Source of the DNA: an uncultured Bacilli bacterium
GTDB lineage: Bacteria; Bacillota_I; Bacilli_A; RF39; UBA660
Assembly (NCBI GenBank): GCA_934130405.1
Contig: CAKOXX010000005.1
Location: 369 to 64,368 of the forward strand
DNA: 64,000 nt
Direction: 5' to 3'
Part shown: positions 27,878 through 60,019 of the stretch, one piece after another
Position numbering within the stretch: the stretch's first letter is position 1
Layout: the number at the start of each line of letters is the position of its first letter
Translations under genes and position numbers: made by a program
Notes under the pieces: model-generated
The model's database searches: none
What the model was told of the DNA's origin: nothing
The model's input: the letters and a program-made list of their open reading frames with translations, nothing else

Positions 27878-27902
27878 TAAATTTGTGATAGTATAAACAT
27901 TA

Positions 27903-28110
27903 AATCAATGAGAAGGAAGTAGTAAAAGATTAATAAAAGTAAAAGAGAGATTATGGTTGGTGTAAATAATCCTTTTATCCTTTGAATTCATCCTTTGAGT
28001 CTTAAAGCAAAACTTTAAGCGTTACTCGCGTTAAGAGATTAGAGTGTATAGAAAACTATAAAATAAGGTGGTACCACGGATATGTTTCGTCCTTAGTTTA
28101 TAGTTTTTCT
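27903..28110 (+). promoter_or_regulatory. T-box leader (Phe specifier UUC) with an intrinsic terminator
   Basis: The stem I start AATGAGAAGGAAGTAGTA and an AGAGAG box are present. The specifier context is GAAUUCA (UUC at 27987-27989). The T-box sequence AAGGTGGTACCACGG lies at ~28065-28079. The terminator is GAAAACTATAAA...TTTATAGTTTTC followed by a T-run (28051-28108). Downstream are a HAD gene, pheS and pheT. Confidence 0.75.
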
Positions 28111-28129: not shown

Positions 28130-28753
28130 ATGCGAAAATTTATTTGGGATTTAGATGAAACACTATTAAGTGCAGATTTTAGAAAAGAAGATGACTTTTT
28201 TAAAGAACAAATACTTGATGAAAAAGTAGATGAATTTATTAGAAGTAAAGTTAAATATTTAATGGAATACGAAAGAACGTTTTTTAAATATGACATAAAG
28301 TTATTAAGTGAATTTCTAACACTTAGAAGTGGACTTAAGATAGATGAAAATCTAATTGAATATTGGAATGAACATAATAAAAATATTCCTGACGTAATAC
28401 ATGATGGAGCAGAAGAAGTACTTTCTTATTTACATAGTAAAGGTTATCAAAATATTCTTTATACTAATTGGTTTAAAGATGTTCAAAAAGAAAGATTAAG
28501 AAGAGCTAATCTATTAGAATACTTTAGTGAAATATATGGTGGAGATTTTGCTATTAAACCTAACGCTATTGGGTATAAGAAAATAATTAAAGATGTAAAT
28601 CCTAATGAAACAGTTATGATAGGTGATAATATTATAAATGATGTTTTAGTTCCAAGAAGTATTGGGATAACTTCATATCATTATGACCCTTTAGATAAAA
28701 ATAATGATAAAAATAAAATTAAAACATTAAAGAAAATAAAGGAGATGTATTAA
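28130..28753 (+). CDS. HAD-superfamily hydrolase
   Basis: 207 aa with motif I (WDLDETL) and motif IV (IGDNIINDV). It lies between the T-box leader and pheS, and pheS starts 2 nt after its stop. Confidence 0.7.
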   Translation: MRKFIWDLDETLLSADFRKEDDFFKEQILDEKVDEFIRSKVKYLMEYERTFFKYDIKLLSEFLTLRSGLKIDENLIEYWNEHNKNIPDVIHDGAEEVLSYLHSKGYQNILYTNWFKDVQKERLRRANLLEYFSEIYGGDFAIKPNAIGYKKIIKDVNPNETVMIGDNIINDVLVPRSIGITSYHYDPLDKNNDKNKIKTLKKIKEMY

Positions 28754-49974: not shown

Positions 49975-51420
49975 ATGGTGAAGAAGAAAAAAGGGTTTAC
50001 ATTAGTTGAATTACTTGCAACTATTACAATTATGGGGTTAATTACTGTAATGGTAACACCATCTATTGTTAAGTTACAAGATAATAACAAGACAAAACAA
50101 TTTCAAATGTATGCTAAGAGTTTGGTTGAAGCTGCTAAAGTTTATGTCCAGAAAGAAGGAGAAGATATTACTCCCCTTGGTGTAGATGCGTGGCAAGGTT
50201 GTATTGAAATTAGTTATCAAGAATTAGCTACTAGTGATTTAGTTAAATCTTACGATGATACAGATTATGATTGTTCTGGTTCTAAGATACGTTATACAAA
50301 AACAAAGAGTAGTGGTAAATATACTTATCATTTAGTATGTAACTCAAAAGTTAGTAAAAAGAAAAACTACGACTTAAATACTATTCCAAATGCTGCTTGT
50401 AGTGTGGAATCGTTAAGCTGTACTCCAGGGGAGAATGCTGTTACCAAAATTACTAGTAAAGCTAATAGTGAAAGCTTAGATTATAATAGTGCTAATGCTA
50501 CTCAAAAGAAGGAAGTATGGACTTATTCAAAGAGTGCTACAACGCAACTTAAAGCTAATACTGAATACAGATATATTGGACAAAATCCAAATAATTATAT
50601 AAAATTTAATAATGAAATCTGGAGAATCATTGGAGTATTTGAAACTGATGATGGTACTGGAAAATATGAAAAAAGGTTAAAAATAATTAGGAATGAAGCT
50701 TTTCCTAAAGAACTTTCTTGGGACAATAAAAATGCTTCTACTGGGGCAGTCGATTACTATGGAAAAAATAACTGGGCTGATGCTAGACTTAATTATTTAT
50801 TAAATCCTAATCATGATAGTGAAACATATGGTGGAAGTCTCTACTGGAATAGAAAGTCCGGTAACTGTTATGCCGGAAGAGATAATGCTACTACTACCTG
50901 TGACTTTTCATCAATTGGACTTACTAACGTTTCAAAAGATTTAATTGGAAATGCCAAATGGTATTTGGGAGGAATAGGAGATTTTACTAGTTCTTCGAAT
51001 GGTTTAGCAACACATTTCTATACTAGAGAAAGAGAAACTTCAGTATACAGTGGTAGAAGTAGCAGTTGGATAGGAAAAGTTGGTTTAATGTATGTAAGTG
51101 ATTATGGTTTTGCAACAAGTGGAAATAGTTCAACTAATAGAGCTAGTTGTTTAAGAAAAGAGTTATATACTTGGAGTTATTCTACAGATTGTGTTAACAA
51201 TGATTGGTTATTTAATTCTACTTATCAATGTATGATTAATCCACGCTCCGATTCTCCAGGGATAGGTTTTCAAATATTTTCAGATGGTATTATTCGTGAT
51301 ATATCTAGTTATGTTACTTGTAATGTTCGACCAGTGGTTTATTTAAAATCATCAGTAGCTTTTAGTGATGGAGATGGAAGTAGTTCGTCACCTTATATCA
51401 TTGATGATTGTGAGGAGTGA
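49975..51420 (+). CDS. Large type IV pilin-like protein: prepilin N-terminus fused to a ~330-aa C-terminal domain
   Basis: The N-terminus is MVKKKKGFTLVELLATITIMGLITVMV. The C-terminal domain contains NNYIKFNNEIWRIIG...GLMYVSDY...VRPVVYLKSSVAFSDGDGSSSSPYII and resembles the C-terminus of the 55132 product. Confidence 0.75.
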   Translation: MVKKKKGFTLVELLATITIMGLITVMVTPSIVKLQDNNKTKQFQMYAKSLVEAAKVYVQKEGEDITPLGVDAWQGCIEISYQELATSDLVKSYDDTDYDCSGSKIRYTKTKSSGKYTYHLVCNSKVSKKKNYDLNTIPNAACSVESLSCTPGENAVTKITSKANSESLDYNSANATQKKEVWTYSKSATTQLKANTEYRYIGQNPNNYIKFNNEIWRIIGVFETDDGTGKYEKRLKIIRNEAFPKELSWDNKNASTGAVDYYGKNNWADARLNYLLNPNHDSETYGGSLYWNRKSGNCYAGRDNATTTCDFSSIGLTNVSKDLIGNAKWYLGGIGDFTSSSNGLATHFYTRERETSVYSGRSSSWIGKVGLMYVSDYGFATSGNSSTNRASCLRKELYTWSYSTDCVNNDWLFNSTYQCMINPRSDSPGIGFQIFSDGIIRDISSYVTCNVRPVVYLKSSVAFSDGDGSSSSPYIIDDCEE

Positions 51421-53823: not shown

Positions 53824-54818
53824 TGGTGTTGAACAATATTGCTTTTAATTCTGCCTTTGCTTCTGTTAATAAAGAATTGATGATAGAAATAGATGAAGTA
53901 ATTAATAAATATAATTTAATCCAAGAAAAAATGGATAAGATTAAACTAGATTATCAATTAAGATTTCAAGATTATTATGATGCAAATTTAACATATTCTG
54001 AGAATCTAGAATACTTTAAAGCTGTTTTTCCTAATTATGAAGATAAACACTTACTATTATTTTCTAAATATATTTTAGATAAAGAATTTGAGGATATTAA
54101 GATTATTTTAGAAGAACCTGAATATGGTGTGGATTATTTAATTGAATTAGTGGAAGAAGAAGGAATCTTAAGAAATGCTAAAGAGATAGTTAATTATATT
54201 GATGCTAATTCTATTAATAATAAAAACGATTTGAATGATGTTGTCAATTTATTTATACTTCCAAGTTATAATTCTGAGATTATAGAAGCATTGATGGAAA
54301 ATAATACTGGTAGTTCAGAATTATCTTTAAAAAAAGCAGGAAGTGCACTAAAGACGCTAATGAGTACTAGTTTTAACAGTCCAGAATTTTCTTCTAAGGT
54401 TCATAAAGTAATTGATAATTCTAGGGACCATGACGTAAAACTTACGTCAGAAGAAGTCCCAATGCAAAGATATAGTACGGGAAAATGTACAAAAGTCATG
54501 TTTTTTAAGTTACCGTTAAGTGATGAGAATAGAAATCACTTAGCTCAAGAATTTAATTCTGATAAGTTAGAAAATGTTTATTATATTGCAGGTTATGGTA
54601 ATTTTAAAGATAGTGGTTATTCTGAACCTGATTTTTATAGATTATTTTTGAATATGACATATTCTAATCAAGATGAGTTACAAAATGTTGTTGATGCTAC
54701 TTCTAATAGTAAAAAGTATCAAGAATTAGTTACATATATTAGGGCAAGTGAAGAGAAGCTTTCTAATTTAGTTTTTTGTAGTCAGAATGATACTAAATCT
54801 TCAAAAATTAGTAAATAA
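53823..54818 (+). CDS. Hypothetical protein (331 aa)
   Basis: A GTG start overlapping the preceding stop (TAGTG). I did not recognise a family. Confidence 0.45.
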   Translation: MVLNNIAFNSAFASVNKELMIEIDEVINKYNLIQEKMDKIKLDYQLRFQDYYDANLTYSENLEYFKAVFPNYEDKHLLLFSKYILDKEFEDIKIILEEPEYGVDYLIELVEEEGILRNAKEIVNYIDANSINNKNDLNDVVNLFILPSYNSEIIEALMENNTGSSELSLKKAGSALKTLMSTSFNSPEFSSKVHKVIDNSRDHDVKLTSEEVPMQRYSTGKCTKVMFFKLPLSDENRNHLAQEFNSDKLENVYYIAGYGNFKDSGYSEPDFYRLFLNMTYSNQDELQNVVDATSNSKKYQELVTYIRASEEKLSNLVFCSQNDTKSSKISK

Positions 54819-54845
54819 TATAAAATTTATTGGTAATAATAATTA

Positions 54846-54873
54846 GTGTTCAGATGTGATGAACACTTTTTTT
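54846..54873 (+). terminator. Rho-independent terminator
   Basis: GTGTTC-AGATGTGAT-GAACAC followed by TTTTTTT. Confidence 0.7.
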
Positions 54874-54877
54874 GATA

Positions 54878-55100
54878 TTGTTAAAAGTCAAGTATTATGA
54901 TATTATTAAGATGTCAAGAATACTGATATTTGATAAAAGATAAGAAGTAGGTGATTAGTATGTATCAAATGATTAAAGTTAACTATAAATTAACGTGGGG
55001 GGGGGGTACTTACTAATTTAAGAAAAAGACTTACTTTCTTTTATCATGGAATAAAGATAGATTAGATATCACTCGTAGTGGTATAAATCTATCTTTTTTG
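54878..55100 (+). promoter_or_regulatory. Leader copy 1: promoter, SD-sequestering long stem, mini-ORF with G10 tract, intrinsic terminator
   Basis: The promoter is TTGTTA (54878-54883), 17 nt, then TGaTATTAT (-10 at 54901-54906). The outer stem is GATAAAAGA (54932-54940) paired with TCTTTTATC (55037-55045), with further imperfect pairing. G10 lies at 54997-55006. The terminator stem is 55053-55063 paired with 55086-55096, followed by a T-run. Confidence 0.55.
54960..55016 (+). CDS. Candidate 18-aa leader peptide MYQMIKVNYKLTWGGGTY
   Basis: The SD AGGTGA lies 5 nt upstream of the ATG. The G10 tract encodes part of WGGG. The C-terminal 13 residues recur in copy 2 if one G is added there. Two of the nucleotide differences between the copies are synonymous (acg/act and tac/tat). 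Confidence 0.4.
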   Translation: MYQMIKVNYKLTWGGGTY

Positions 55101-55131
55101 TGTAATACTAAAATGAAAGGAACAAGTCTTT

Positions 55132-56991
55132 ATGAATAAACAAAAGTTTAAAAATATATTAACTATCGGAACAACCTTTATCTTACTAATTACTGTTATT
55201 GGTATCAGTTATGCTGCTTTTAATTACTCAGGAATAGGTCAAAAGTTGAATACCATTACGACTGGAGCAATTACGATGAATTATACAGAAAGCAGTAATG
55301 TCATCTCAATGAGTAATGCACTTCCCACCACAGATTCTACTGGAAAGAAAAGACTGAATTCCGGAGAATACTTTGATTTTACTATTAAATCATCAATCAC
55401 AGGAAATACAGATATCAACTATGAGATAGCAGCGAAAGAAGAAAATGGTAATACTTTTGATGGAAAGAATATCAAACTATATCTTACAAAAGTTAATTCC
55501 GATGGAAGCGAAGAAGAAGCGATGCCCCCAAAGACTTATTCAGAAGACCCAACCGGCAATGTTTATACAGGACGACCATCCGATATGATGAGTTTATTTG
55601 TAGGTAATCTTAATCAGCAAGGAGACACAGAAATAAAATATCGCTTAAGATTATGGGTAGATGAAAGTTATAATCCGCAGAGTGATAATGGAGGACTAGT
55701 ATATAAAGTAAAAGTAAATGTTTATGGACAAACTAGTGATACAGTAGCAGAAGTAGAGGATACCTATTGTAAAGATAATGGCTTTACTACTTTGTCGGAT
55801 TGTATGTTAGTAATGAATAATCACGAGACTTCTGTAGAGACTGCTAAACAAAATATAACTAACAAAGGAACACCAGACTTTTCTAAGACAGCCACGACTG
55901 ACGAAGGTTTATTTATGGCAGATGATGATGAAGGACCCAGTTACTATTATAGAGGAGCAGTCAAGAATAATTATGTATCATTTGCAGGATATACTTGGAG
56001 AATTATCCGTCGAAATGGAGATGGAAGTGTTCGAATGATTTATGCAGGGAAGAAGACAAGTGATACAGGTGAATCAACAATAATAGGTAAATCATCTTTT
56101 AATGAGAAATATTGGGATCCAACCTATGTAGGATATAAATATAATGAAAAATTTTCACTTCATGAAAATAGCGAAACAGGTTATGTTTGGTTTACCAATA
56201 CGCAAAAATACGATTTTGGAACAGGATATAACTTTGATGAATCAACAAAAAAATTTGTGTTAACAGGAACCATTAAGAAATTAACGTGGGAAGATAATCA
56301 TGATGAAATAGTATTAGGGAAACTATACAGCTGTTTAACTTCAAATTGTAACGCAGTTTATAAAGTGACAGAATATAAAAATGAAACACAAATGCAAGTA
56401 CAGCCGATTTCGTATAGTAGTGATAGTTATGAAGATGCAGTTACAAATAATACAAATTCAACTGTGAAAGATGTATTAGATACATGGTATAAAAATAATT
56501 TAGCAAGTTATACATCATATATAGCAGATGAAATATTTTGTAATGATAGAAGTTTAATAGACGGTTCAGGATATTTAATAACACCAACAACTTTTTATGG
56601 AACTTATCATCGTTTACGCGATAAAAAAACACCAAGCTTAAAATGTATACAAGATAATGATAAATTTAGAGTATCAAATACAAGTGCAAAATTAGATTAT
56701 CCAATTGCACTTATTACTGCCGATGAAGTTTCTATGGCAGGCGGAGTATATAATATAGCAAATAATAATTATTATTTATATAATGGACAATATTTTTGGA
56801 CAATGTCTCCATCTAAATTCACTTCTAATTATTCTCTTGCCGGAGCTTGGTATGTTATTCCTTCAGGTAGTTTACTTGATCACGGTGGCATTGTTGATCC
56901 TCGCGGTATCCGACAAGTTATCAATCTAAAGTCTAATGTCAAAATAACAAAGGGAGATGGAACAGCTTTGAATCCATTTACTATTAAATGA
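55132..56991 (+). CDS. Secreted 619-aa protein: SipW-type-like signal/N-terminal module plus a C-terminal domain shared with the 49975 pilin-like protein
   Basis: The N-terminus ...LLITVIGISYAAFNYSG...TGAITMNY resembles SipW-cognate (TasA/camelysin-type) signals. It also has YRLRLWVDE. The C-terminus contains NNYVSFAGYTWRII...IALITADEV...GIRQVINLKSNVKITKGDGTALNPFTI. Confidence 0.7.
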   Translation: MNKQKFKNILTIGTTFILLITVIGISYAAFNYSGIGQKLNTITTGAITMNYTESSNVISMSNALPTTDSTGKKRLNSGEYFDFTIKSSITGNTDINYEIAAKEENGNTFDGKNIKLYLTKVNSDGSEEEAMPPKTYSEDPTGNVYTGRPSDMMSLFVGNLNQQGDTEIKYRLRLWVDESYNPQSDNGGLVYKVKVNVYGQTSDTVAEVEDTYCKDNGFTTLSDCMLVMNNHETSVETAKQNITNKGTPDFSKTATTDEGLFMADDDEGPSYYYRGAVKNNYVSFAGYTWRIIRRNGDGSVRMIYAGKKTSDTGESTIIGKSSFNEKYWDPTYVGYKYNEKFSLHENSETGYVWFTNTQKYDFGTGYNFDESTKKFVLTGTIKKLTWEDNHDEIVLGKLYSCLTSNCNAVYKVTEYKNETQMQVQPISYSSDSYEDAVTNNTNSTVKDVLDTWYKNNLASYTSYIADEIFCNDRSLIDGSGYLITPTTFYGTYHRLRDKKTPSLKCIQDNDKFRVSNTSAKLDYPIALITADEVSMAGGVYNIANNNYYLYNGQYFWTMSPSKFTSNYSLAGAWYVIPSGSLLDHGGIVDPRGIRQVINLKSNVKITKGDGTALNPFTIK

Positions 56992-57019
56992 TACAAGTGA
57001 GGAAAGAGGTGCTTCGAAT

Positions 57020-58473
57020 ATGAAATCTAAGATTAATAAACAAAGTATATTTTTAATTATATTACTTGTGATATTGATATTTATTATTTTAAGAATGTCG
57101 TATGCATTTTTACAAACAAGTTTCTTTGCAAGTAATGATAATGTTTTAAAAGTAGCTAGTTTAGCACTTGTATTAGATGAGTCAGAAGGTAATGCGATAA
57201 CAGTATCAGCAGATGGACCGTTATCAGATAGTGAAGGTGTTAATTTAAATAATTACTACTCATTTAAATTAACTAATAATGGAAAAGTAGCATCTTCGTA
57301 TACAATATATTTAGATAATCAACCACTTGATGATGGAGATGTAAGGATTGACCAGAAATATGTTCACTATAGTTTAGAAAAAGATGGTTCTAATAATGTT
57401 GCTAAGTCACTAACTGGAGAACAAAAACTAGAAAGTGGAATAATAAATAGTAAACAAACTATCAACTATAAATTAAGATTATGGTTTTCAAGTGATATGA
57501 CAGCTGAAGAAGAAAATAAAGTCTTTAAAGCAAAACTTAGAATAGAAGCTAGTCAAAATATTAATGCTATGGCATCATCTCTTAAACTTACCGATGAAGA
57601 AAAACAAACAATTACTAAGATAGTATTTCAGGATAAAATAAATGATATAGAAAACACTACTAAGAGTTATGATTTATCAGCAAATGATAATAATAGTGTT
57701 ATTGGCAAAATAGTATCTAATGGCGATAGTACAAATACTTTATATATCCAAAGTAATGGGGAAATATTTGCTAATAGTAATTCTAGTTACCTATTTAACT
57801 ATTTTACCGAACTAAAAACAATAGAAAATTTAACTTTGTTAAATACCTCACAGGTTATAAATATGTCACACATGTTTAGCAATTGTAAAAGTTTATTAAA
57901 TATTGATTTAAGTAACTTTGATACATCTAAAGTTGCTAATATGAATGGTATTTTTAGTATGTGGAATAAAACGGATGATGCTGCTAGTACTGGTAGTTTG
58001 ACTTCATTAAATTTAAGAAGTTTTGATACAAGTAAAGTTACTAATATGTATGATATGTTTGCATATAATAAAAATTTGGAAGAATTAAATATAAGTAGTT
58101 TTAATACTGAAATGTAATAAATATGGCTTTTATGTTTACAAATTGTATTAAGTTAAGTAGTATTGATGTTAGTAATTTTAATACTAGTAGTGTAGTTTAT
58201 ATGCAAAATATGTTTGGCAGCTGTAAAAGTTTAACTTCTTTGAATCTAAGTAGTTTTGATACTTCGAATGTAAATTATATTAAAGAAATTTTTTATAATT
58301 GTGAAAAATTACAGAGTATAGACTTAAGAAAGGCAATTTTTACAAAAATTTCAAATTATGATAGTATGTTTTATGGTGTACCGTCTGATATAAACATTAT
58401 TACTAAAGATGTAATAAATAAATCTTGGTTAGAGGATAGATTAAATGGAAAAGGAACAGTTACTATTGGTTAG
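57020..58473 (+). pseudogene. Secreted BspA-type leucine-rich-repeat protein split by a 1-nt frameshift in an A-run
   Basis: It appears as two ORFs, 57020-58117 and 58123-58473. Reading gaaAatgtaataaatatggct with one extra A gives ...FNTENVINMAFMFTNC, which exactly continues the LRR periodicity (F.TS.V.NM..MF..C..L). Confidence 0.7.
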
Positions 58474-58490
58474 ATATTTTGATAAATATA

Positions 58491-58708
58491 TTGAGATACA
58501 AAAATAGTTGTGATAAACTTAAATTATCAAAAGTAAAGAAAGTAGGTGAGTAATTATGAATATGTGTTTTAGGAATGATTACTCACTTTTTAAGTCTAGA
58601 AAAGTTAACTCAAAATTAACTTGGGGGGGGGTACTTATTAAGTAATAAACCTACTTTCTTTAATAGTGTAAAAATAATAGAATAGGAAAAAACTTATTCT
58701 GTTTTTTT
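58491..58708 (+). promoter_or_regulatory. Leader copy 2: promoter, perfect 14-bp inverted repeat covering the SD, mini-ORF with G9 tract, intrinsic terminator
   Basis: The promoter is TTGAGA (58491-58496), 17 nt, then TGaTAAACT (-10 at 58514-58519). The inverted repeat is TAAAGAAAGTAGGT (58534-58547) paired with ACCTACTTTCTTTA (58649-58662). An inner hairpin pairs 58546-58554 with 58578-58586. G9 lies at 58623-58631. The terminator spans 58679-58708. Confidence 0.55.
58556..58645 (+). CDS. Candidate leader peptide, copy 2 (29 aa as sequenced: MNMCFRNDYSLFKSRKVNSKLTWGGVLIK)
   Basis: The SD AGGTGA lies 6 nt upstream of the ATG. With G9 the frame exits as GGVLIK*. With G10 it would end KVNSKLTWGGGTY*, matching copy 1. 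Confidence 0.35.
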   Translation: MNMCFRNDYSLFKSRKVNSKLTWGGVLIK

Positions 58709-58740
58709 GTGCTGTTTAAAAAAATGAAAAGAGGTAAAAA

Positions 58741-59949
58741 ATGAAAAAGGGACAAAATATATTTTTAGTTATATTATTAGTAATATTGATATTTATTATT
58801 CTGGGAATATCATATGCGTTTTTACAAACAAGTTTCTTTGCAAGTAATGATAATGTCTTAAAAGTAGGAGACTTATCGCTTGTATTAGATGAATCGGAAG
58901 GTAATGCGATAACTGTATCAGCTGATGGGCCATTATCAGATAGTGAAGGTGTTAATTTAGATAATTACTACTCATTTAAATTAACTAATAATGGAAAAGT
59001 AGCATCATCATATACAATCTATTTAGATGATCAACCACTAGATGAAGGTGATGTTAGAATTGACCAGAAATATGTTCACTATAGTTTGGAAAGAGATGAT
59101 TCTAATAATGTTGCTAAGTCTTTGATTGAAAGTCAAAAACTAGAAAGTGGAATAATTAATAGTGGACAAACTATTAACTATAAATTAAGATTATGGTTTT
59201 CAAGCGATATGACAGCTGAAGAAGAAAATAAAGTCTTTAAAGCAAAACTTAGAATTGAAGGAGCATCAACTAGTGAAGAAGGGTTAAATAAAAAGTGTCA
59301 TAGTGTTGGAGGAGATTATTACGTAGATGGAGAATGTAGAAAATATTATGTAATGAAAAATAATATAGTGGATATGGAAAATGTTTCATTTGGAAACGAA
59401 ACTGATGGTAATAAAATAAATCATAGCTATGATGCAATATCTAAAACTTGGACAGTTAGTTATACAGGAAGTAATAAATGGTTTGGAACTTATATAACTC
59501 CAACTCTTGAGTATGTTAAACATCTTTATTATGGATATTATGAGTCGAGTTGTCATTCAATAGATGGAAGAGTGGAATTCTATACTTATAATAGTAATCC
59601 TATATATCCTGCCATTAATGTTTCAAAGTTAAATGATAATGCTTATTCCTACTATTATAGTTTAATAGACGATATAGATATAAATAATATTACAAGTTAT
59701 GGTCCTTATCTTCAATATAATGGCTTTCCAATTACTACAGAGTTATCACCAACGTATACTTTAAATAATTATATGATAATTGACTTAACTTTGATGTTTG
59801 GTGAAGAAAATGAACCAAGTAAAGAATGGTGTGATAAGAATTTAACTAGTTATATAGAATATAATGAAAGTGGAGTAAAGGCTCCTATTAGTGATATAAA
59901 CTATACTGGTAAGACTAGTTATTATGATGTAATATCAATGTATAAATAG
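58741..59949 (+). CDS. Secreted 402-aa protein sharing the ~175-aa N-terminal module of the 57020 gene, with an unrelated C-terminal domain
   Basis: The N-terminal part, roughly nt 58741-59262, looks about 90% identical by eye to 57020-57553. It contains ISYAFLQTSFFASNDNVLKV and YKLRLWFSSDMTAEEENKVFKAKLRIE. Similarity ends abruptly after RIE. Confidence 0.7.
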   Translation: MKKGQNIFLVILLVILIFIILGISYAFLQTSFFASNDNVLKVGDLSLVLDESEGNAITVSADGPLSDSEGVNLDNYYSFKLTNNGKVASSYTIYLDDQPLDEGDVRIDQKYVHYSLERDDSNNVAKSLIESQKLESGIINSGQTINYKLRLWFSSDMTAEEENKVFKAKLRIEGASTSEEGLNKKCHSVGGDYYVDGECRKYYVMKNNIVDMENVSFGNETDGNKINHSYDAISKTWTVSYTGSNKWFGTYITPTLEYVKHLYYGYYESSCHSIDGRVEFYTYNSNPIYPAINVSKLNDNAYSYYYSLIDDIDINNITSYGPYLQYNGFPITTELSPTYTLNNYMIIDLTLMFGEENEPSKEWCDKNLTSYIEYNESGVKAPISDINYTGKTSYYDVISMYK

Positions 59950-60019
59950 TAGTAAAAACCTCTTGACAAAATCTTGGTATTTTCATTATTCTAGTAAATA
60001 GAATGAGGAGGAATAAAAG

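Follow-up and report, generated by a model that had tools for sequence, protein, structure and literature searches.

Leaders and genes in the window

The DNA analyzed here (the window) was the 64,000-nucleotide (nt) stretch at positions 369 to 64,368 of contig CAKOXX010000005.1 (assembly GCA_934130405.1) from an uncultured Bacilli bacterium, and its subject is a pair of leaders, copy 1 and copy 2, which preceded two secreted-protein operons and probably act as frame-controlled switches of transcription. These leaders were homologous at the places where the initial annotation had reported a two-copy element, and they shared the same order of parts: extended -10 promoter-like site, Shine-Dalgarno (SD) arm, short open reading frame (mini-ORF), GUUAA hairpin, G tract, right arm, and intrinsic terminator. 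About 30 nt after the T run of the terminator, each copy displayed a large gene's ribosome-binding site (RBS) and ATG. The 30-nt core AAAGTTAACTnnAAATTAACnTGGGGGGGG had exactly two occurrences in the window (0 expected from shuffles), and an nhmmer profile search gave no third copy there. The window had a GC content of 28%, and the two G tracts were its sole G or C runs of at least 7 nt in 64 kb. The features were as follows:

54845..54876, + strand: intrinsic terminator, a hairpin with T run, at the end of the preceding operon
54878..54906, + strand: copy 1 promoter-like site (-35 TTGTTA, 17-nt spacer, extended -10 TG-a-TATTAT)
54932..54952, + strand: copy 1 left arm of the long-range helix, purine-rich, with SD AGGTGA at 54949-54954
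54960..55016, + strand: copy 1 mini-ORF, MYQMIKVNYKLTWGGGTY and stop, in an early-stop frame (predicted OFF)
54978..54994, + strand: copy 1 invariant small hairpin GUUAA-7 nt-UUAAC, within the mini-ORF and directly 5' of the G tract
54997..55006, + strand: copy 1 G tract, 10 G, the proposed slipped-strand switch
55029..55045, + strand: copy 1 right arm ACTTACTTTCTTTTATC, anti-SD-like, pairing with the left arm
55053..55099, + strand: copy 1 intrinsic terminator, the putative attenuator (long hairpin plus T6)
55132..56991, + strand: regulated gene 1, 619-amino-acid (aa) secreted/surface protein with N-terminal hydrophobic signal
57020..58473, + strand: PARCEL/DUF285 surface-protein gene 28 nt downstream of gene 1 in the same operon, without a leader of its own
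58491..58519, + strand: copy 2 promoter-like site (-35 TTGAGA, 17-nt spacer, TG-a-TAAACT)
58534..58547, + strand: copy 2 left arm TAAAGAAAGTAGGT, overlapping SD AGGTGA (58544-58549)
58556..58645, + strand: copy 2 mini-ORF, MNMCFRNDYSLFKSRKVNSKLTWGGVLIK and stop, in an early-stop frame (predicted OFF)
58604..58620, + strand: copy 2 invariant small hairpin GUUAA-7 nt-UUAAC
58623..58631, + strand: copy 2 G tract, 9 G
58649..58662, + strand: copy 2 right arm ACCTACTTTCTTTA
58676..58708, + strand: copy 2 intrinsic terminator, the putative attenuator (AGAATAGG-loop-CTTATTCT plus T7)
58741..59949, + strand: regulated gene 2, 402-aa secreted protein of the same family, its N-terminal domain common with gene 1

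Since the preceding operon had its own terminator at 54845..54876, copy 1 began an independent transcription unit.

Copies of the leader elsewhere

An exact-pattern scan, which covered species-representative genomes, gave 16 core matches in three metagenome-assembled genomes (MAGs) labelled uncultured Bacilli, with 13 of them in a single Hadza-gut MAG. Profile search added copies, raising the number in one uncultured gut Bacilli genome to at least 14, and a metagenome scan gave 23 further real copies in gut metagenome contigs. Profile search over all collected loci returned 64 hits, and the public assemblies contained about 45 distinct copies. The scan of viral contigs gave two chance matches only, both within coding sequence. 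Each copy was immediately followed by a gene from a single secreted-protein family, and the core had one orientation relative to promoter and gene in 64 of 64.

Two subtypes were recognized: (i) subtype A, like copy 1, located before 619-aa genes that were followed by PARCEL/DUF285 or 401-aa genes without a second leader, and (ii) subtype B, like copy 2. Four leaders (L007:1437; L012, at 1327 on the minus strand; L004:3550; and L008:5949) were hybrids, in which a type-A-like promoter and a mini-ORF start of the form MYQ... were joined to a type-B right arm and terminator, and these suggest that leaders have recombined in the conserved core surrounding the G tract.

More distant homologues, with 35-40% identity to the regulated proteins, had no such leader and were flanked by XRE-type helix-turn-helix (HTH) genes. 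At two such loci from another lineage, L083 and L084 (distant homologues P0188 and P0181, respectively), each gene had as its partner an XRE-family HTH gene in divergent or convergent orientation, and a Fic-domain gene was found nearby. The family member P0162 likewise lacked the G-tract leader: its upstream regions (L073-L082) contained the end of an insertion sequence (IS)-like ORF plus a different hairpin and T run instead, and an HTH_OrfB_IS605 gene was found downstream, which suggests a possible IS-mediated replacement of the leader.

Leader mini-ORF

In every copy, an ATG followed the SD by 6-9 nt and shared the frame of the conserved segment (K/Q)VNxKLTWGG, with no intervening stops. 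The N-terminal parts of the mini-ORFs were unrelated between copies and spanned 3-25 codons; given a dozen or more unrelated N-termini, the chance of such in-frame placement of SD and ATG was about (1/3)^12. Within the conserved segment, the Thr codon displayed synonymous changes only (ACG/ACC/ACT), the Asn codon varied synonymously (AAC/AAT), and position x was free. On these sequence grounds, the mini-ORF is almost certainly translated.

The two copies in the window had different peptide ends, WGGGTY in copy 1 and WGGVLIK in copy 2 (which read ...KVNSKLTWGGVLIK before its stop), because copy 1 had 10 G and copy 2 had 9 G. The initial annotation had given KVN(Y/S)KLTWGGGTY as the conserved end of both, which was true of copy 1 only; it had overlooked the hypermutable G tract and therefore wrongly called the peptide end conserved. 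It had also counted two synonymous third-position changes between the copies; just one was found (ACG/ACT, Thr), the other difference (TAT/TCA) being a Tyr to Ser replacement. Apart from these two details, the observation itself was real, i.e., partly confirmed.

The leader at L010:1021-1150 had ...TTAACC-CC-G9 in place of ...TTAACC-T-G9, thereby replacing Trp with Pro and gaining one extra base, whose effect on frame equaled that of one added G; this variant indicated that the Trp codon was not strictly required. In copy 2 (about 58545-58590) as well as in L014, L006, L018, and L022, the mini-ORF repeated its own SD/start region in inverted form (GGTGAGTAATTATG ... ATGATTACTCAC), giving a second hairpin (about 10 bp) that would hide the SD and AUG; this inverted copy explained the recurrent ...YSLF... 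in mini-ORF peptides with a long N-terminus.

Length variation of the G tract

The G tract was hypermutable. Lengths of 7, 8, 9, 10, and 11 were observed across the family. At the locus orthologous to copy 1, whose 619-aa gene was identical in many samples, two haplotypes eight single-nucleotide polymorphisms apart were each seen with G9 and with G10: (i) L046 (G9) and L049 (G10), in which that one G was the only difference over 3610 nt, and (ii) L047 (G9) and L050 (G10), which had two differing positions over 3535 nt. The presence of both haplotypes in both G states indicated that the length change occurred repeatedly. At one type-B locus, an identical 255-nt leader was found in nine samples (G9 in five and G10 in four, mixed within one assembler). 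The type-A alleles among the profile matches were G9 in seven cases, G10 in six, and G8 in one; the type-B alleles were mostly G9 (34 copies) or G10 (10 copies). A search of a protein collection with the predicted type-B read-through peptide further gave G8 in L087, L088, and L089 and G11 in L090, the same loci being G9 elsewhere; the matches were called genes of 41-42 aa with ...WGGYLLV...FFHS.K.ME and ...WGGGYLLA....

Three contigs terminated exactly within the G tract. More generally, metagenome contigs often ended in or beside the leader (end of L020, start of L028, end of L036, start of L001 at window position 55051, and L077-L082), which fits a repeated 120-nt module plus length heterogeneity, or failure of reads at poly-G; because contigs break at the leaders, these loci are expected to be under-assembled in MAGs.

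Reading frames beyond the G tract

Downstream of the G tract, the three reading frames behaved differently in all 45 distinct copies. Two frames stopped 5-15 nt before the right arm and 29-41 nt before the terminator, while the third was open across the right arm and met its TAG/TAA stop 10-28 nt inside the terminator hairpin (45/45). The 45 copies together contained 0 stops in this read-through frame vs 140 and 105 in the other two. The read-through frame corresponded to G9 in type A and to G8 or G11 in type B: with 9 G, the ORF of copy 1 would extend to the TAG at 55063-55065, and with 8 or 11 G, that of copy 2 would extend to the TAG at 58683-58685, each inside the terminator. Both copies in the window are thus predicted to be OFF as sequenced, with ON states at G9 (copy 1) and at G8 or G11 (copy 2).

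Indels in the spacer region were multiples of three or compensated. The type-B spacers were 19, 22, or 25 nt in length, and L002 and L013 differed by a +3 insertion and a compensated -1/+1 pair, with the frame kept. By a hand count, 10-12 stop trinucleotides in five divergent spacer classes were all located outside the read-through frame (roughly p = 0.01-0.02).

Promoter, long-range helix, and terminator

The initial annotation had placed an extended -10 promoter 17 nt after a -35 hexamer in each copy. The sites were present, and the -35 hexamer, 17-nt spacer, and TG-n-TAnnnT were kept at the same position in sequence-divergent relatives, including type A; these promoter-like sites were nevertheless consensus matches only, and shuffles yielded about as many in the scan.

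Whole-leader folding compared with shuffles gave z = -3.9 for copy 1 and -5.5 for copy 2. The inverted repeat, with SD AGGTGA in its left arm, was as previously described: perfect over 14 bp in copy 2 (58534-58547/58649-58662) and imperfect in copy 1. A helix between the left and right arms was present in all copies, and a 9-pair helix was present in 12 representative copies.

The strong intrinsic terminator reported directly before the RBS of each structural gene was likewise found as a hairpin plus T run, with a predicted free energy of about -16 to -18 kcal/mol in copy 1 and -8 to -10 kcal/mol in copy 2. Such a hairpin and its T run lay 20-33 nt upstream of the start codon in every copy of the family (-8.6 to -18.4 kcal/mol), and the terminator sequence varied by subtype with compensatory changes in four pairs. 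A distance of just 20-33 nt between terminator and start codon meant that a second promoter would not fit.

An Rfam scan of the whole window at gathering thresholds gave a T-box at 27899 as its sole match, and a permissive scan of 54000-60000 gave SprX as the best overlapping match (17 bits vs a gathering score of 80, E = 3.3). The T-box leader spanned window positions 27899-28097 (112.7 bits, above its gathering score) and was located upstream of ORFs at 28130, 28755, and 29773.

Proposed mechanism

These data are best read as follows: each leader is probably a phase-variable, translation-dependent transcription attenuator. The description at the level of parts (a translated ORF, a mutable tract, and a terminator) is much firmer than the full mechanism. 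A sigma-70-type promoter would start a leader RNA of about 200 nt; a ribosome would load at the SD of the left arm and translate the mini-ORF with its run of 9-10 G, and a slipped-strand change of one G during replication would shift the frame after the tract. In two of the three frames, the ribosome would halt 5-15 nt before the right arm and at least 29 nt before the terminator, and the hairpin would form (OFF or low expression). In the third frame, the ribosome would trail the polymerase into the hairpin and block its folding, and the surface-protein gene would be transcribed (ON). The helix between the arms, in which the right arm mimics an anti-SD, would probably shut the SD after the first ribosome, and untranslated leaders would terminate. 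We infer both the control of termination by frame and the role of the long-range helix in closing the SD of the mini-ORF.

One-base slips of the G tract would thus probably turn each downstream gene on or off, and the signal is more likely to be the reading frame itself than a metabolite or charged tRNA. Partial folds gave no stable pairing between the right arm and the 5' half of the terminator that might serve as a trp-type antiterminator; no antiterminator being predicted, physical occlusion by the ribosome was the simplest reading. The translation-coupled attenuator that the initial annotation had proposed was right in kind, in that ORF frame, terminator, and arm pairing were conserved in about 45 copies, and that interpretation was partly supported. 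With at least 14 leaders per genome before paralogous secreted proteins, the result, if true, would be stochastic, heritable, and reversible expression of surface proteins that differs between cells.

Several points weigh against this mechanism, the first of them concerning the frames. When the spacer was shuffled, about 59% of cases still had one frame that ran open into the hairpin (P about 0.59 for a single copy). A within-subtype substitution test on 37 events, underpowered as it was, gave 0 new stops in the read-through frame vs 2.1 expected (p = 0.12), while the other two frames gained two stops each. The copies are moreover paralogues, so their agreement is partly inherited. The frame argument is therefore weaker than it appears, and the read-through frame is plausibly under selection. 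The alleles raise a second difficulty: type-B copies were overwhelmingly G9 or G10, both predicted OFF, with read-through alleles found only via the targeted search, and Illumina length calls at 9-10 G are error-prone, several contigs having 2-5x coverage. Thirdly, the arms paired at -14.5 kcal/mol vs -9.1 kcal/mol for the right arm with other SD regions, a moderate advantage only, and 10% of the background pairings were as good. The covariation that the initial annotation had named as a check was seen in the four terminator pairs but not in the long-range helix, which displayed one-sided G-U changes only and no double compensatory changes. Finally, the mechanism gives no role to the invariant GUUAA hairpin or to the conserved peptide VNxKLTW.

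Alternative explanations

Four other explanations were weighed against the phase-variable attenuator. The frame might be changed at the level of RNA or ribosome, by transcriptional slippage or -1/+1 frameshifting, giving every template a fixed read-through fraction and hence a rheostat in place of a heritable switch. Polymerases and ribosomes tend to slip on runs of 9-10 identical bases, many copies had a hairpin UACUUA...UAAGUA 3' of the G tract, and G9 and G10, OFF at the DNA level, dominated type-B loci; DNA-level length polymorphism, including alleles in the read-through frame, was however directly seen. As a replacement for the phase-variable attenuator, such slippage is improbable, and it is better regarded as a refinement or possible extra layer of that model than as an alternative.

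The G tract might instead act as RNA, pairing with the C/U-rich right arm in competition with the left arm, or binding a C/U-rich small RNA (sRNA) or a protein, so that its length tunes expression. A precedent is the G-repeat of Helicobacter pylori tlpB, whose length tunes its expression as the target of the sRNA RepG. RNAalifold on 45 copies paired GGGGGGG...GUA with UACUUUCUUU, and the tract and its flanks were conserved at the nucleotide level. These pairs were, however, nearly all G-U and invariant, hence without covariation evidence, and the tract was unpaired in single-sequence folds of both copies. An RNA-acting tract would also leave unexplained both the constant frame of SD-ATG with the tract and the one frame that always reached the terminator, and we consider it quite unlikely.

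A third account would be a conventional leader-peptide attenuator sensing the speed of translation at Trp-Gly-Gly(-Gly), with differences in G length as noise or sequencing error. The translated mini-ORF and the terminator architecture are compatible with it; WGG(G) was encoded by the tract in every copy, GGG being rare in a 28%-GC genome; and poly-G is a known weak spot of short reads. Against it, lengths from 7 to 11 recurred on identical backgrounds and within one assembly pipeline, and a ribosome stalled on the tract would be more than 40 nt before the terminator and thus without effect on it. A trp-type attenuator was rejected, because no antiterminator alternative was predicted and because the downstream genes encoded surface proteins (secreted proteins of unknown function and PARCEL proteins) and not enzymes of an amino-acid pathway; there is little chance that sensing of translation speed accounts for these leaders.

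The weakest alternative, a recombinase-driven invertible DNA segment bounded by the inverted repeat as in Clostridioides difficile cwpV, was rejected as extremely improbable: 11-14 bp inverted repeats flanked the core and one same-strain contig ended just after the right arm, but 64 of 64 copies had a single orientation, the segment was just 90-130 bp, no recombinase gene was found in the neighbourhood, and the G tract together with the roughly 120-nt repeated module accounted for the contig ends. None of the four fits as much of the evidence as the phase-variable attenuator.

Comparison with known systems

The leaders were compared with four kinds of known systems. Attenuation at Escherichia coli trp, his, and pyrBI, as here, involves a leader peptide and an intrinsic terminator and depends on ribosome position; in pyrBI, the leader ORF overlaps the terminator and a closely following ribosome prevents the hairpin, and the leader ORF here overlapped the terminator too (in the ON frame). 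Unlike these operons, the leaders here had no end-product regulatory codons or antiterminator, and the input would be a heritable frame change, not a metabolite. In C. difficile cwpV, site-specific DNA inversion causes phase variation via an intrinsic terminator in the 5' leader of a surface-protein gene; the leaders here would likewise act through such a terminator, but no inversion was seen.

Poly-G contingency loci of Campylobacter and Neisseria and poly-A loci of Mycoplasma switch members of surface-protein multigene families ON and OFF by +/-1 nt. A hypermutable G run and a surface-protein multigene family were likewise found here; the tract of a contingency locus lies in the structural gene, whose translation it truncates, or between -35 and -10, whereas here it was part of a leader ORF distinct from that gene and would act on transcription termination. 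Homopolymer contingency loci have been reviewed in the discussion of PMC3894217.

The closest system was pil1/pil3 of Streptococcus gallolyticus. The initial annotation could match the leader to no known class, which held for Rfam but not for the literature, pil1/pil3 following the same logic (PMC3894217). There, GCAGA repeats in a leader ORF shift the frame (described in 2014; PMC3894217); expression is low when the peptide ends 28 nt or more upstream of the hairpin and high when it ends within or beyond it (PMC3894217). Mutants of the start codon, stop codon, and terminator confirmed that model, which works in Lactococcus lactis too (PMC3894217). Both systems occurred in gut Firmicutes and shared a promoter, a translated leader ORF with a simple-sequence repeat, a terminator before surface-structure genes, and a frame shift upon repeat change; a leader ORF with its own SD and start, a variable repeat within that ORF, a terminator before the gene, and a frame-dependent shift of the stop into the hairpin were all found in the leaders here. 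Early stops 29-41 nt before the hairpin matched the low-expression class of S. gallolyticus.

There was no sequence relationship between the two, and they differed as follows: (i) the repeat was a G9-10 homopolymer here vs 13-22 GCAGA units; (ii) one-third of the frames reached the terminator here vs two-thirds; (iii) a conserved cassette of about 120 nt was found at 14 or more loci per genome before a paralogous family here vs two pilus operons; (iv) the leaders here additionally had an SD-sequestering long-range helix and the invariant small hairpin; and (v) the S. gallolyticus switch was shown genetically, while the element here is known from sequence. The principle is thus already published, and what is new is a homopolymer-based, multi-copy version across a gene family. 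In the full-text collection that was searched, S. gallolyticus was the only system that paired slippage of a leader-ORF repeat with transcription attenuation, and the finding indicates an independent origin of this principle in a widespread uncultured human-gut Bacilli lineage. With each subtype's G length taken modulo 3, the resulting sequence rule would allow the expressed surface proteins to be predicted from metagenomes alone. The leaders also warn that short G-tract ORFs can be functional rather than assembly noise or pseudogenes, and the cassette would offer a compact, portable, stochastic genetic switch.

It is rather doubtful that the cassette forms a genome-wide hierarchical system of antigenic variation, going beyond a binary pil1-like switch by module recombination, three outputs, and subtype-specific wiring. 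In such a system, the shared 120-nt module would recombine among the 14 or more loci (as in leaders with a type-A 5' part and a type-B 3' part, e.g., L007 and L012), and the three frames would give three output levels, in that the two early stops, 5 nt and 15 nt short of the arm that sequesters the SD, could differ in re-initiation or RNA stability. A toggle between G9 and G10 would switch type A ON and OFF, while type B would need a less common change, to G8 or G11, before it was expressed; slippage of polymerase or ribosome on the G tract could add a non-heritable layer.

Regulated proteins and neighboring genes

The regulated proteins constituted a family of 390-625 aa with a hydrophobic N-terminal signal (...G(V/I)SYA(L/A/F)...) and a common N-terminal domain. 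The family had more than 4500 hits in gut metagenomes, none of them named, and searches of Pfam, NCBIfam, and PDB sequences with the regulated proteins gave no match. The AlphaFold model of the gene 2 protein displayed two beta-sandwich domains (mean predicted local distance difference test [pLDDT] score 68) and had weak hits to CBM22/CBM32-like beta-sandwiches (template-modeling score about 0.3); the proteins are possibly glycan-binding. A SipW/TasA-type signal peptide was suspected on account of ...GISYA(A/F)..., and no NCBIfam model matched either protein, so that it serves as a lead only.

The PARCEL/DUF285 gene was split into ORFs of 365 aa and 116 aa by a 1-nt frameshift (about 58110-58122) at ...ACTGAAATGTAATAAATATGGC...; GAAAAT for GAAAT at this place would restore the repeat consensus NTENVINMAFMF, and the gene was intact (545 aa) in relatives. 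The first 180 or so residues of its product were nearly identical to the 402-aa protein at 58741. Elsewhere in the window (49975-51420), a 481-aa protein harbored a prepilin-type N-terminal methylation motif (type IV pilin-like), and its gene was located directly upstream of a U32 peptidase/collagenase-like gene.

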